Positions 5,347 through 9,560 of a DNA stretch of 9,560 bases are shown here, piece after piece; positions within the stretch are counted from its first letter, which is position 1, and every line of letters starts with the position of its first letter. The position numbers and the translations under genes were made by a program. The notes below the pieces were generated by a model, which did no database searches, was not told the DNA's origin, and worked only from the letters and a program-made list of their open reading frames with translations. The DNA comes from a virus (Duplodnaviria > Heunggongvirae > Uroviricota > Caudoviricetes), in the IMG/VR virus record IMGVR_UViG_2529292985_000013, positions 1 to 9,560 of that record. One strand, 5' to 3'.

Positions 5347-5354
5347 AGGTGTTT

Positions 5355-5576
5355 ATGCAATCCATTAACTTCCGTACCGCGCGCGGCAACCTTTCTGAAG
5401 TGCTCAACAATGTTGAAGCCGGGGAAGAGGTTGAAATCACCCGCAGAGGCCGAGAGCCAGCAGTAATTGTCAGCAAGGCTACTTTTGAAGCCTACAAAAA
5501 AGCGGCGCTGGATGCTGAATTTGCATCCCTGTTTGACACCCTGGACTCCACCAACAAGGAACTGGTTAACCGATAA
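5355..5576 (+). CDS. phd: Phd/YefM-family antitoxin (prevent-host-death)
   Basis: ATG at 5355 with SD GAGG 6 nt upstream (track ORF starts at an upstream GTG). The 73-aa product [56 protein letters not shown]... matches P1 Phd as I recall it. Stop TAA overlaps the doc ATG (TAATG). Confidence 0.9.
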
Positions 5577-5956
5577 TGAGGCATATATCACCGGAAGAAC
5601 TTATTGCGCTTCATGATGCGAATATAAGCCGCTACGGCGGCCTGCCGGGAATGTCAGATCCGGGTAGGGCAGAGGCCATTATCGGGAGAGTTCAGGCCAG
5701 AGTTGCCTACGAAGAGATCACCGACCTTTTCGAAGTCTCCGCCACCTACCTGGTAGCTACGGCGAGAGGGCATATATTCAATGATGCCAATAAGCGTACC
5801 GCGCTAAACAGTGCGCTGCTATTTCTACGCCGTAACGGCATACAGGTATATGATTCTCCCGTGCTGGTGGAACTTGCGGTGGGGGCCGCAACTGGTGAAA
5901 TCCCCGTATCTTCAGTAGCGGAAAAACTACGTGAATTATTTGGTTCCAATATTTGA
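5576..5956 (+). CDS. doc: Doc toxin (Fic-fold kinase, death-on-curing)
   Basis: 126 aa coupled to phd. Contains the Doc-type Fic motif [11 protein letters not shown] (HxFx[DN][AG]NKR). Length and sequence match P1 Doc as recalled. Confidence 0.9.
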
Positions 5957-5960
5957 AAAG

Positions 5961-5984
5961 AAGCCCGCTCAACCAGGCGGGCTT
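5961..5984. terminator. Hairpin between convergent transcription units (doc on +, leftward operon on -), probably bidirectional
   Basis: GC-rich 8-bp stem AAGCCCGC (5961-5968) / GCGGGCTT (5977-5984), 8-nt loop. On the - strand it is followed by CTTTTC (better U-tract); on the + strand a T-run appears only further downstream. Confidence 0.55.
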
Positions 5985-6039
5985 CCTACTATCACTCAAT
6001 GATTTTTTCTGCTGTCAGCCAGCTAATTCGGTGATGTTT

Positions 6040-6840
6040 TTAGGCGTCAGCATCCTCCGCTACCTCTGCTTCAACATCAGCCACGGCTTCATCGGACGGT
6101 TCTTCTTTGGCCTGCTCTGCAATCGCCGCACGGCATTTGGCCCTTGCTGTGGCGATTGCTTCAGCACGCACATCATCAGGAATCATTGACGTGATATACA
6201 TATCCAGTTCTTCGGCGCGGAACACTGTTTGGTCCAGATATTCGCGTAGCATCCAGGTAAATTCGAAATCACACGCGATAATCTCTGCGCTACCTTCTGC
6301 ACCATTTGGGAAATGAATAAAAGCCTGTTTAGCCAAACCGATAACACGACATGCGGTTGCCAAAACAGCGGCAACCAGGTTTACATTTTCACACGCTACG
6401 GGCTGATTAACGCCGGAGATTACTCCATTTAACTGTCGGTTATATGGAAGGTAGTTTGAGATGCGTTCTACGCGCCATGTGCCAGTCAGGCTGCCATTCT
6501 TAAAGATAATTGGTGTAACGGATAGCCCAAGCTCGCGTATAAGTCGTTGCGCTATAGCAGGATCATTAAACATGTCTAATGCTACACATTCGAAAGACTG
6601 TGCAAGGGTAAACAGTTCTTCCAGAGAGTAGTCTTTGCCCCTGGCGGTGATGTAACGATGAACGCCGCTTTCTGCATCACTCCATATAGCTACGCCATGC
6701 TCTTCATTCAGCTCTTCATTAAAGCCGAGATACGTCATGATAGTACGTTCAATCGTGTCAAACGGCAGTGACATGTCGGCGTTAACAGCCACCAGCAGGC
6801 CATTACGCAAGCGGTATTGAATTGCTTTAGTATTTTCCAC
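6040..6840 (-). CDS. Hypothetical protein, 266 aa, with strongly acidic Ala/Glu/Asp-rich C-terminal tail
   Basis: Long ORF with GTG start at 6840, 6 nt after the upstream stop, SD-like GGAG 9 nt upstream. No recognisable catalytic motif (no P-loop, no HxH). C-terminal ~40 aa are low-complexity acidic (EEPSDEAVADVEAEVAEDADA). Confidence 0.7.
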   Translation of the reverse strand: MENTKAIQYRLRNGLLVAVNADMSLPFDTIERTIMTYLGFNEELNEEHGVAIWSDAESGVHRYITARGKDYSLEELFTLAQSFECVALDMFNDPAIAQRLIRELGLSVTPIIFKNGSLTGTWRVERISNYLPYNRQLNGVISGVNQPVACENVNLVAAVLATACRVIGLAKQAFIHFPNGAEGSAEIIACDFEFTWMLREYLDQTVFRAEELDMYITSMIPDDVRAEAIATARAKCRAAIAEQAKEEPSDEAVADVEAEVAEDADA

Positions 6841-6846
6841 GTTAAA

Positions 6847-7509
6847 TCACTCCACTACAAACCAGTCACATGCCAGCAAGTCGCCTACAGAAGGCAACCA
6901 CGGAACAACTACACCTTGTGCATTTTTTAAGGCGAAATAAGCACCATACGGAACGAGATCGCCGGGGAAATATCCCTTAATGGCTTCCATTCGTGCCGGG
7001 TACTGTCCTTCAGGAACCAGCCAGCAGAATTGGTTTTCGCCGTTCCACCCGCGCCGGGCAACTTTCTTGCCATCCTTCAGCCACATCAGCGCGTCAGAAA
7101 AGTCGGCTGCTTCAAGGTCGATTTCTTCTTGTAGAGTAGCGATACCGCCAGCAGAAATAGTTACGTCCCTGGCTGTAATGAATGTCACCCCATTGTGACC
7201 TTCAATGCTGAGCGATACCCCATTTTCGGAGGCGTCGTTAACCCGGCTATAGCATTTTTCAAATGCTTTCTCTGGCACATAGACCAGATAGCCATTTTCA
7301 GCAGTGACGAGATATCCTCCTATTTGCGGTCGGAATTTTTCCAAGAACACACCATCAACACGAAGCGTCATTCCTTTTGGCTCAACGACTTCGATACTGC
7401 CAAAAATGGGCGCATAAGCTTTGCCGACAATAACAATATCTTTGATTTTCGATGCCCGAATGATGCTGTGGCATTTGTATTTGGGGAACACCTGAAAAGT
7501 GCTGACCAT
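6847..7509 (-). CDS. Two-domain protein, 220 aa: N-terminal ~135-aa domain of unknown function fused to a C-terminal DUF2829/Tad2-like domain
   Basis: ATG with SD AGGAAGG upstream. The C-terminal ~85 aa (FSDALMWLKDGKKVARRGWNGENQFCWLVPEG...VVVPWLPSVGDLLACDWFVVE) fit my recollection of the DUF2829 pattern (ALxxLKxGKKVxRxGWNG ... WxPSxxDLLAxDW), the family of Thoeris anti-defence Tad2. Confidence 0.75.
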   Translation of the reverse strand: MVSTFQVFPKYKCHSIIRASKIKDIVIVGKAYAPIFGSIEVVEPKGMTLRVDGVFLEKFRPQIGGYLVTAENGYLVYVPEKAFEKCYSRVNDASENGVSLSIEGHNGVTFITARDVTISAGGIATLQEEIDLEAADFSDALMWLKDGKKVARRGWNGENQFCWLVPEGQYPARMEAIKGYFPGDLVPYGAYFALKNAQGVVVPWLPSVGDLLACDWFVVE

Positions 7510-7523
7510 AATCCTTCCTCTAC

Positions 7524-8018
7524 TTAAAACTTTGCGTACTGAAGCGGTGTACGCTTGATTTCAACGCGGTCTTCCGATGTGCTACCAAAGCCACCAGCGC
7601 CTCGCTCTGTTTCATCGAGTTCATCAACTTCTACCAGCGATACCGGTTCAACACGCTCAAAAATGCCTTGCATGACCGCCATTCCTGGCTTGAGGCAAAC
7701 GCCTTCACCACCGGGATCTGTAATCAGTTTTGCCATGATTTCACCGCGATAATCGGAGTCGATAATTCCTACGCAGTTAGCCAGGCGAGTATGTTTTTTG
7801 CAGCCCAATCCGGAACGCGGATAGAGTTTCAGACACCAGCCGGGCGGGATCTCCATAGCCAGTCCGGTGTACACCCACCAGCTTGAGGAAATTGCACCAT
7901 TGCTATCGACACATGGTTTTATTTCAACAGCCTCAAAATCCATCGCCGCCGATCCGGAGGTGGCATAAGCTGGAAGTTTTGCTGCCGGATGTAGGCGTTT
8001 CACTTTTACGTAAATCAT
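7524..8018 (-). CDS. dut: Trimeric dUTPase homologue (deoxyuridine triphosphatase) with divergent motif IV and short C-terminal extension
   Basis: ATG overlaps the upstream stop (ATGA). Motifs: I PAYATSGSAAMDF, II PRSGL, III GIIDSDYRGE, V ERGAGGFGSTS. Motif IV reads GMAVMQ where E. coli Dut has GERIAQ (Arg replaced). About 15 extra residues follow motif V. Confidence 0.85.
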   Translation of the reverse strand: MIYVKVKRLHPAAKLPAYATSGSAAMDFEAVEIKPCVDSNGAISSSWWVYTGLAMEIPPGWCLKLYPRSGLGCKKHTRLANCVGIIDSDYRGEIMAKLITDPGGEGVCLKPGMAVMQGIFERVEPVSLVEVDELDETERGAGGFGSTSEDRVEIKRTPLQYAKF

Positions 8019-8491
8019 TGTTTTTTAGCTCTCTGCGTGAAGGTGTAAACCCGACGTTTGATATGTGGAACGGTAGGAACAGGAATACAGGAACTTTCAA
8101 TAACTCCTTGCTCCTCCAGCGATCGCACCGCCCGCAAGAACTGCGACGTGTCGCCGCCAAACTGGCGGGCATAGGTGCTGCCGTTATGAAGTATTTGAGC
8201 TATTACCCGAGCTTTTGTCTGGCTGTCACGATATGCGAATAGCCGCACGGCCTCTTCTGGCGCAATCGATAACTGATAGCCTTTACCGGCACGGTGTCGA
8301 ATGAATCCATGCGCCAGTAGGTTTTTGAGTTCGTTACGAGTGCGAACAGATCCGTAATCCAGGAAGTGTGGATTGATAACGACTGGCTTAAACCATTCCG
8401 TAGGTGCTTTAGCTAATAGAGCTAACAGCTTCCCGGACAATCCTGGATAGGAAGACGGGTAACAATTCAGAGATGGGTAATAAGTTTTCAC
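8015..8491 (-). CDS. Hypothetical protein, 158 aa, possible winged-helix DNA-binding segments; no internal Met
   Basis: GTG start overlapping the upstream stop (GTGA), preceded by AGGGGG. The protein has no internal Met, so a non-ATG start is obligatory. Segments LLALLAKAPTEW...RTRNELKNLLAHGFIRH and STYARQFGGDTSQFLRAVRSLEEQGVIES look like HTH/winged-helix recognition regions (inference). Confidence 0.6.
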   Translation of the reverse strand: MKTYYPSLNCYPSSYPGLSGKLLALLAKAPTEWFKPVVINPHFLDYGSVRTRNELKNLLAHGFIRHRAGKGYQLSIAPEEAVRLFAYRDSQTKARVIAQILHNGSTYARQFGGDTSQFLRAVRSLEEQGVIESSCIPVPTVPHIKRRVYTFTQRAKKQ

Positions 8492-8844
8492 CGACGCCCC
8501 CTTGCCGGATATCGACCTGCATTAGTATCCGGTGCAATAAAGCCGGTAGTGGGGCGAGTGAAAGCGAGATTAATCTTCTCGACCATAGTGCGATAATTTT
8601 CCTGATAGTGGGCCAGGAGTTTTTCGGCGGCAATGATGGTTACTTTCCGGACGTAGCTTTCTGCTTCCTCCAGATTTCGCCAGTTTTTTTCGAGGGTAAA
8701 CACAGGGACGGCCTCAAGCCCGGTCATGATGCCGAATACAACGACAGCATGACTGTTCTTAACACCAGCGGCGAAGGTTACGGTGTAACCATCCACCGTG
8801 AAGCGTCTTGATTCCGTGATTTGACTCTGCAAAGCACCCTCCAA
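8488..8844 (-). CDS. Small hypothetical protein, ~114-118 aa, first gene of the leftward operon
   Basis: Frame is open only from TTG at 8844 (in-frame stop 6 codons further upstream); no ATG is available. A second TTG at 8832 sits 5 nt after a GGAGGG SD-like sequence and may be the true start. Function unknown. Confidence 0.5.
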   Translation of the reverse strand: MEGALQSQITESRRFTVDGYTVTFAAGVKNSHAVVVFGIMTGLEAVPVFTLEKNWRNLEEAESYVRKVTIIAAEKLLAHYQENYRTMVEKINLAFTRPTTGFIAPDTNAGRYPARGRR

Positions 8845-8905
8845 AATAGGCGAGGGTACTTTACAGCAAAGATATCAATCTAAAAAGATGTGTTAGAAAT
8901 TTAAT

Positions 8906-9560
8906 TTACGAATCCATCAAGCGGCTATTAGCCCCCACAGACACACCGCCACGGCGCAGATACCGCATAAGTGTTTCCGGTTTCTTCCAGGTTCCTTCCT
9001 GCATGATCTCCACCATAGACACCTGCTTTTCAGCCATATCGATAGCGGCCCCGACACGAGCACTATGCCCGGTCCACGTCCGGTATCTCCCTTTGTTTGG
9101 CGCGGCATCCCTTTTATTCAGCAACACCCAGGCGTCGCTGAATATTTTCTCCATTGCAGGTGCAGTAAGGGGCGTTGTCGTAATCCTGGCCTTATTGCTA
9201 CGGTGTATCGGCGGGAACAGCACCGCGTCAGGATGTTCACGAAGCCCGGAAACATCCAGCCAGTCATTCAGCACAGCAGTAGTGCGACGGGAAAGCACCT
9301 TATCAAGCCCGGCGGCGGTCGTTATTGTCTTCGTGTGTGAAATATGTAGCGTGACAGTGTCACCTGTTTGGTCCAGATCTCCTACACGAATACGCGAGAT
9401 TTCCGACATACGCATCAGCGTATTGTATGCAACAAAGAGAAAAGCCCGGTTGCGCTGGTCCACCAGCCGTTCTGACCTGGACAGCAGGACGTCGAGCAGT
9501 TTCAGGTCGTCCCACCGCAACGGTATAGCCTGGCCTGTTCGCTCGCCTTTTTCCGTTGCC
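8906..9560 (-). CDS. Cre-family tyrosine recombinase, C-terminal catalytic part; 5' end beyond the window
   Basis: Frame stays open to the window edge upstream of the track's TTG at 9520. Translation aligns with P1 Cre (recalled) over the catalytic domain: RAFLFVAYNTLMRMSEISRIRV vs RNLAFLGIAYNTLLRIAEIARIRV, GHSARVGAA (His/Arg box), and conserved Trp/Tyr (TWKKPETLMRYLR). Roughly 45-50 percent identity by eye, so it is not P1 Cre itself. Confidence 0.85.
   Translation of the reverse strand, partial: ATEKGERTGQAIPLRWDDLKLLDVLLSRSERLVDQRNRAFLFVAYNTLMRMSEISRIRVGDLDQTGDTVTLHISHTKTITTAAGLDKVLSRRTTAVLNDWLDVSGLREHPDAVLFPPIHRSNKARITTTPLTAPAMEKIFSDAWVLLNKRDAAPNKGRYRTWTGHSARVGAAIDMAEKQVSMVEIMQEGTWKKPETLMRYLRRGGVSVGANSRLMDS

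Follow-up and report, generated by a model that had tools for sequence, protein, structure and literature searches.

The recombinase frame at the end of the window (the whole stretch of DNA that was analysed, 9,560 nt) is almost certainly the C-terminal catalytic two-thirds of dre, carried by a phage-plasmid of the D6 type in the P1 family with the known Dre/rox system. Dre/rox of phage D6 was reportedly described by Sauer and McDermott in 2004, and genome engineers have used Dre/rox as a standard tool from 2004 onwards. The cognate site of the recombinase in the window is presumably rox; since the recombinase is Dre, this site was already known, and no hunt for a site is needed. Dre/rox is here an already known and ordinary feature.

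Within positions 8906-9560, the minus-strand frame comprises 217 sense codons and a stop, and it is open to the window edge. Its TAA stop occupies 8908-8906, and no in-frame stop was found from there up to 9559. The rest of the gene lies past the window edge; projection from plasmid pEC213_2 places its ATG near position 9934. A TTG start at 9520, proposed by the ORF finder for a 204-aa ORF, was rejected because the frame continues past 9560. This call arose from the truncation of the gene at the window edge, the TTG being merely the first possible start codon.

The protein encoded by the fragment was identical to residues 126-342 of Dre from Escherichia phage D6 at 215 of 217 positions (E=1e-161). 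Megablast of 8400-9560 against phage records gave three matches, each to Escherichia phage D6 with 99.3% DNA identity, and the D6 match falls under a GenBank feature annotated 'dre: tyrosine recombinase' in the D6 immC region (AY753669). Two substitutions relative to D6 Dre, L160Q and T278A, are present within the window. This allele is also carried by pEC213_2 and by the related viral locus L005, each time paired with a canonical rox.

Pfam profile Phage_integrase (PF00589) matched the fragment at 62.4 bits (E=6e-17), relative to a curated cut-off of 27.1 bits, and P1 Cre matched it with E=1e-47. These findings confirmed that the fragment is a tyrosine recombinase of the Cre family, far above chance, as the initial annotation had recognised from the C-terminus. 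The annotation had put identity to P1 Cre at about half; the measured value was 40%, both for the fragment (88/218) and at full length (137/338). It had also described the protein as a diverged relative merely comparable to Dre, and the protein proved to be Dre itself. The comparison with characterised recombinases that it had proposed did reveal a close relative, one that was already known.

In a global alignment of Cre and Dre read onto the window codons, the Cre catalytic set was complete (R175, E178, K202, H290, R293, W316, and Y325 in Dre numbering). The residue positions agree with the active-site numbering of Dre in PMC4777119. Residues 22-341 of the full-length homologue could be aligned to chains from Cre crystal structures (E=2e-68); under the E-value limit, no solved chain was nearer than Cre and engineered Cre variants. 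Residues K43, R259, and G263 of Cre help set the discrimination between loxP and rox/pox (Karimova et al., PMC4957104). The specificity positions covered by the window hold the Dre residues P259 and K263. The equivalent of Cre K43 (R44) lies outside the window and is present in the Dre of pEC213_2.

An uncharacterised Cre relative having its own 13-8-13 lox-like site, yet to be found, could also show only 40% identity to Cre and leave no site in the window. However, the protein is 99% identical to a Dre that has been characterised, its specificity-linked residues are Dre-type, and its nearest relatives all carry rox at a fixed distance. It is hardly conceivable that the window encodes such a new recombinase, and we treat the gene as dre in the following.

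The rox site is 32 bp long and consists of 14-bp inverted repeats and a 4-bp asymmetric spacer (PMC4777119). In terms of function, according to Chuang et al. (PMC4777119), rox and loxP probably have crossover regions of similar length. The canonical sequence, TAACTTTAAATAATGCCAATTATTTAAAGTTA, is annotated in AY753669, in which a 'region of crossover (rox) site for Dre recombinase' is placed upstream of dre. Searches allowing up to 3 mismatches found neither rox nor loxP in the entire window, including 8845-8905; for rox this is expected, since the site lies upstream of the dre ATG.

Several expectations of the initial annotation regarding the target site were borne out. It had reported no lox-like site in 8845..8905, and our search at up to 3 mismatches agreed. 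It had inferred a target other than loxP, near the 5′ end of the gene but outside the window. The recombinase is indeed too far from Cre for loxP, and the relatives carry rox, 151-152 bp upstream of the ATG. The case of a near-identical copy of Cre with loxP, which it had raised against its own reading, was not encountered: the two proteins differ at more than half of their positions and loxP is absent from the window. The geometry that it had expected, a 13-8-13 lox-like site, was incorrect, given the 14-bp arms and 4-bp spacer of rox. It had proposed extending the search past 9560; when this was done on relatives, a site was found, namely rox and not a 13-8-13 lox.

Because the dre of the window is a mosaic of two alleles, the upstream part of the gene was inferred from relatives. 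Plasmid pEC213_2 (NZ_CP061103.1; E. coli 1EC213; 92.7 kb; non-mobilizable) differs from window positions 5845-9560 by 1 base in 3,716, at 9443. Its dre is an intact 342-codon ORF that differs from that of D6 only by H102Q, L160Q, and T278A, and a perfect rox TAACTTTAAATAATGCCAATTATTTAAAGTTA is located 152 bp upstream of the dre ATG. In this plasmid, rox separates dre from c1, a repressor gene transcribed divergently, with pacB and pacA beyond c1. From this arrangement, the rox of the source molecule is predicted at ~10087-10118, 527 bases past the window edge, and c1 is projected to extend from about 10329 in window coordinates.

Our IMG/VR sample comprised 32 related viral loci (L005-L036) recovered with the dre fragment. 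All 32 contained a 342-aa dre ORF, with 306-342 residues identical to D6 Dre. A rox or near-rox sequence was present 151-152 bp upstream of the dre ATG in every one of these loci and likewise in D6, pEC213_2, and plasmid pIso00270_02. The site was canonical in 21 of the 32 loci, had one arm mismatch in nine, and showed other variants in two. The arm variant ATTATCTAAAGTTA (T-to-C) accounted for the nine loci and was also found in pIso00270_02. The rox of L026 has the spacer CCCC instead of GCCA, and that of L034 differs at three positions and is shifted by 1 bp. The rox spacer variants could be naturally heterotypic sites. An earlier paper (PMC4957104) had already mentioned Dre and rox from strains of E. 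coli, one with a single point mutation.

These loci also bear on the integrity of the gene. The window ends at codon 126, so that the first 125 codons are unseen, and elements of the P1/D6 type are highly mosaic; the dre of the window could in principle be a remnant or pseudogene whose N-terminal domain is missing or disrupted just past the edge, a case that the initial annotation had also named. However, the frame is open right up to the edge, and the 342-aa ORF is intact in the 32 IMG/VR loci, in D6, and in the two plasmids examined, so that all relatives examined carry the N-terminal domain. In addition, the 11 DNA differences from L005 in 8906-9560 cause no amino acid change. Substitutions relative to other dre alleles are overwhelmingly synonymous, which indicates purifying selection. 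A remnant is therefore very improbable, and we regard dre as a gene truncated by the window edge.

The dre of the window is an intragenic mosaic. Its sequence equals the L005 allele at 9560-9111, whereas from 9172 leftward it equals the L006 allele, at least as far as 7507, where the compared range ended. This match to two alleles implies a recombination junction inside dre, between 9111 and 9172, and none of the database records examined combined the alleles in exactly this way. An exact search with a 106-nt string spanning the junction gave no match in viral contigs and none in genome contigs. L005 was rejected as the source locus of the window: its protein is 100% identical, yet 64 of 2,054 bases differ.

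The mosaic structure is relevant to the form of rox that accompanies this gene. Dre could be paired here with a natural variant of rox (ATTATCTAAAGTTA or an altered spacer), perhaps partly incompatible with canonical rox. The T-to-C arm variant is not rare among the relatives (9/32 loci and pIso00270_02, with L026 and L034 also variant), and the 3′ part of the window dre matches the L006/pIso00270_02 allele, which accompanies the arm variant. However, the rox-proximal part, 9560-9111, is identical to the L005 allele, which has canonical rox, and pEC213_2, one base off over 3.7 kb, has canonical rox as well. A variant site is thus unlikely, and even if present it would still represent Dre/rox.

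Mosaicism in the window is strong outside dre also. The segment 2349-3604 is ~93% identical to Stx-converting lambdoid phages (DUF551 and ead/Ea22-like genes), and this match points to probable exchange between phage-plasmid and lambdoid prophage.

Table 1. Positions of dre, its functional residues, neighbouring genes, and related sites. Positions are those of the window unless another locus is named.
Feature	Position	Strand	Remarks
phd	5349-5576	+	
doc	5576-5956	+	
isaA-like ORF	6040-6840	-	
Tad2-like protein gene, 220 aa	6847-7509	-	
dut	7524-8018	-	Pfam dUTPase
orf3/orf116 homologue of D6	8015-8491	-	Pfam match: none
orf2/orf117 homologue of D6	8488-8844	-	Pfam match: none
dre-orf2 spacer, 61 bp	8845..8905	.	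Recombination site: none
dre, 3′ two-thirds	8906..9560	-	Codons 126-342 of 342-codon Dre tyrosine recombinase gene, plus TAA
Tyr325, nucleophile (Cre Y324 equivalent)	8960..8962	-	Alignment
Trp316 (Cre W315 equivalent)	8987..8989	-	Alignment
H290-S-A-R293 motif (Cre H289/R292)	9056..9067	-	Alignment; H290 9067-9065, R293 9058-9056
P259...E262-K263 (Cre R259/E262/G263 positions)	9146..9160	-	Dre-type residues P, E, K
Lys202 (Cre K201 equivalent, general acid)	9329..9331	-	Alignment
Arg175 (Cre R173 equivalent)	9410..9412	-	Global alignment of Cre and Dre; Dre numbering as in PMC4777119
Codon 160	9455..9457	-	Gln vs Leu in D6 Dre; alignment
Promoter-like site	L037 4234-4261 (pEC213_2)		Projects to ~10078-10105, past window; also L001, L005-L036
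Natural rox variant	L003 15194-15225		

D6-like phage-plasmids are well catalogued, and the window comes from one such element of the P1 family. D6 aligned to 77% of the window with 96.7% identity and matching annotations. The best overall matches were non-mobilizable E. coli plasmids of ~90 kb; their identity reached 98.8%, with 95% of the window covered. The gene order is that of D6: phd-doc / isaA-like / Tad2-like / dut / orf3 / orf2 / dre. D6-like plasmid prophages have already been surveyed (PMC6799933). The dre fragment was found in 117 PLSDB plasmids (95 from Escherichia, 16 from Salmonella, 6 from Shigella), 115 of which are non-mobilizable. It was also found in 99 of 5,426 complete E. 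coli genomes; all 100 matches were plasmid-borne and none was chromosomal. The hosts of D6-type phage-plasmids carrying dre are E. coli, Salmonella, and Shigella.

The initial annotation had described the recombinase gene as convergent with doc. This is correct in orientation only, because five minus-strand genes intervene between doc and dre. Junctions in this minus-strand array consist of 4-base overlaps or gaps of 6-14 bases, and the gap between dre and orf2 is 61 bases. A promoter and terminator scan of 5900-9560 revealed no promoter-like site and nothing above shuffle expectation; the 61-base gap contains neither a promoter-like nor a terminator-like site. The lack of a promoter-like site is consistent with a transcript that starts outside the window, ahead of dre, and covers dre and the five genes that follow it. 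The spacing of the junctions and the contents of the gap are compatible with co-transcription of dre and the array. No RNA family was detected in the whole window by Rfam at the gathering threshold.

A palindrome scan of 8780-9000 found a single candidate, an imperfect inverted repeat at 8827-8841/8852-8866 with 15-nt arms (87% complementary) and a 10-nt loop. It was rejected as a recombination site; its geometry is wrong and it is unlike rox. Lacking a T-tract, it does not appear terminator-like either. The repeat extends across GGAGG and the TTG that is the putative start codon of the orf2/orf117 homologue, and could sequester the ribosome-binding site. The start of orf2/orf117 is itself uncertain: the gene has 309 nt in AY753669 and pIso00270_02 and 345 nt in MF356679 and pEC213_2, and the longest ORF, from TTG, has 357 nt.

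The Tad2-like ORF of the array matched Pfam PF11195 (Thoeris anti-defense 2) over its C-terminal 85 residues (E=2e-22); its N-terminal part of 135 aa had no Pfam match. D6 annotates only a shorter version of this ORF, of 146 aa (orf114). The domain match makes this gene, located in one array with dut and dre, a candidate anti-Thoeris factor.

In pEC213_2, a sigma-70-like promoter (TTGGCA-16 nt-TATAAT; 11/12 match) directed into dre overlaps rox: the rox spacer region coincides with its -35 hexamer, and 3 bp separate the arm from its -10 hexamer. TATAAT was kept in all 35 related loci (D6, the two plasmids, and the 32 IMG/VR loci), including those with diverged flanks. When the AT-rich 394-nt dre-c1 intergenic region was shuffled, about 3.6% of the shuffles gave an 11/12 match by chance. 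Because the promoter overlaps rox, Dre bound at rox could repress its own transcription. That Dre represses dre in this way, tying the recombinase level to site occupancy, is a tentative proposal whose correctness we consider rather doubtful. A search of the dre-c1 intergenic region of pEC213_2 for sequences resembling the P1 C1 operator gave one match with 4 mismatches, which was unconvincing.

The closest known system is Dre/rox of D6 (AY753669, MF356679). The window shares with it the near-identical protein and DNA described above as well as the downstream genes orf2, orf3, and dut. The nearest relatives share its protein length of 342 aa, its rox sequence, and its 152-bp distance from rox to ATG. 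Differences from D6 are the two substitutions in the window and, in the full-length relative nearest to it, H102Q. Panto, of the Panto/pox system from Pantoea sp. aB, is reported to be the characterised recombinase closest to Dre, with 52% identity (PMC4957104); to judge from this published value, Panto is far more distant from our protein than D6 Dre is. The arms of its site are nearly identical to those of rox, and each of the two enzymes also recombines the site of the other (PMC4957104).

Cre/loxP of P1 belongs to the same family and has the same fold, and the catalytic residues of Cre are identical to those of the window. Its site is likewise located upstream of the recombinase gene, between this gene and a divergent c1, in a phage-plasmid of the P1 type. 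The two systems differ in protein sequence (40% identity), in target (the 32-bp, 14-4-14 rox vs the 34-bp, 13-8-13 loxP), and in the downstream genes, which are orf2/orf3/dut here and c8/ref/mat in P1. The order in P1 is doc, pdcA, pdcB, lpa, pacA, pacB, c1, lox, cre. Relative to this order, the annotations of D6-type elements indicate that the block lpa-pacA-pacB-c1-site-recombinase is inverted. This inversion is a known property of D6 and is not peculiar to the window.

Thus, the window holds no new orthogonal recombinase, and in this respect the value of the analysis is that of a negative outcome. For users of Dre, wild variants of rox exist (one arm change in ~30% of loci; spacer variants are rare), and natural Dre alleles range down to about 90% identity. 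The promoter-like element built into rox is a further small point for these users.

In both E. coli and mammalian cells, recombination of rox by Dre is efficient (PMC4777119, PMC4957104, PMC3553980). Dre is inactive on loxP, vox, and VloxP and acts on pox, and Cre is inactive on rox (PMC4777119, PMC4957104, PMC3553980). From this literature on D6 Dre, the allele in the window is expected to recombine rox and not loxP.

Tyrosine recombinases act as protomers on paired sites and exchange strands stepwise through phosphotyrosine links and a Holliday junction. By analogy with Cre/lox, two rox sites would be synapsed by four Dre protomers bound to their four arms. Tyr325 would then attack the scissile phosphates, forming 3′-phosphotyrosyl links. 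Exchange of the first pair of strands would generate a Holliday junction, and following isomerisation, exchange of the second pair would resolve it, as in the Cre paradigm.

If Dre/rox works as Cre/lox does in P1, it would cyclise the genome, which is terminally redundant, after injection, and would resolve prophage-plasmid dimers before partition, allowing faithful segregation of the low-copy plasmid. The restriction of dre to plasmids fits a function in plasmid-prophage maintenance. Genome cyclisation and plasmid-dimer resolution, by analogy with P1, are thus the likely role of Dre/rox in the D6-type phage-plasmids.
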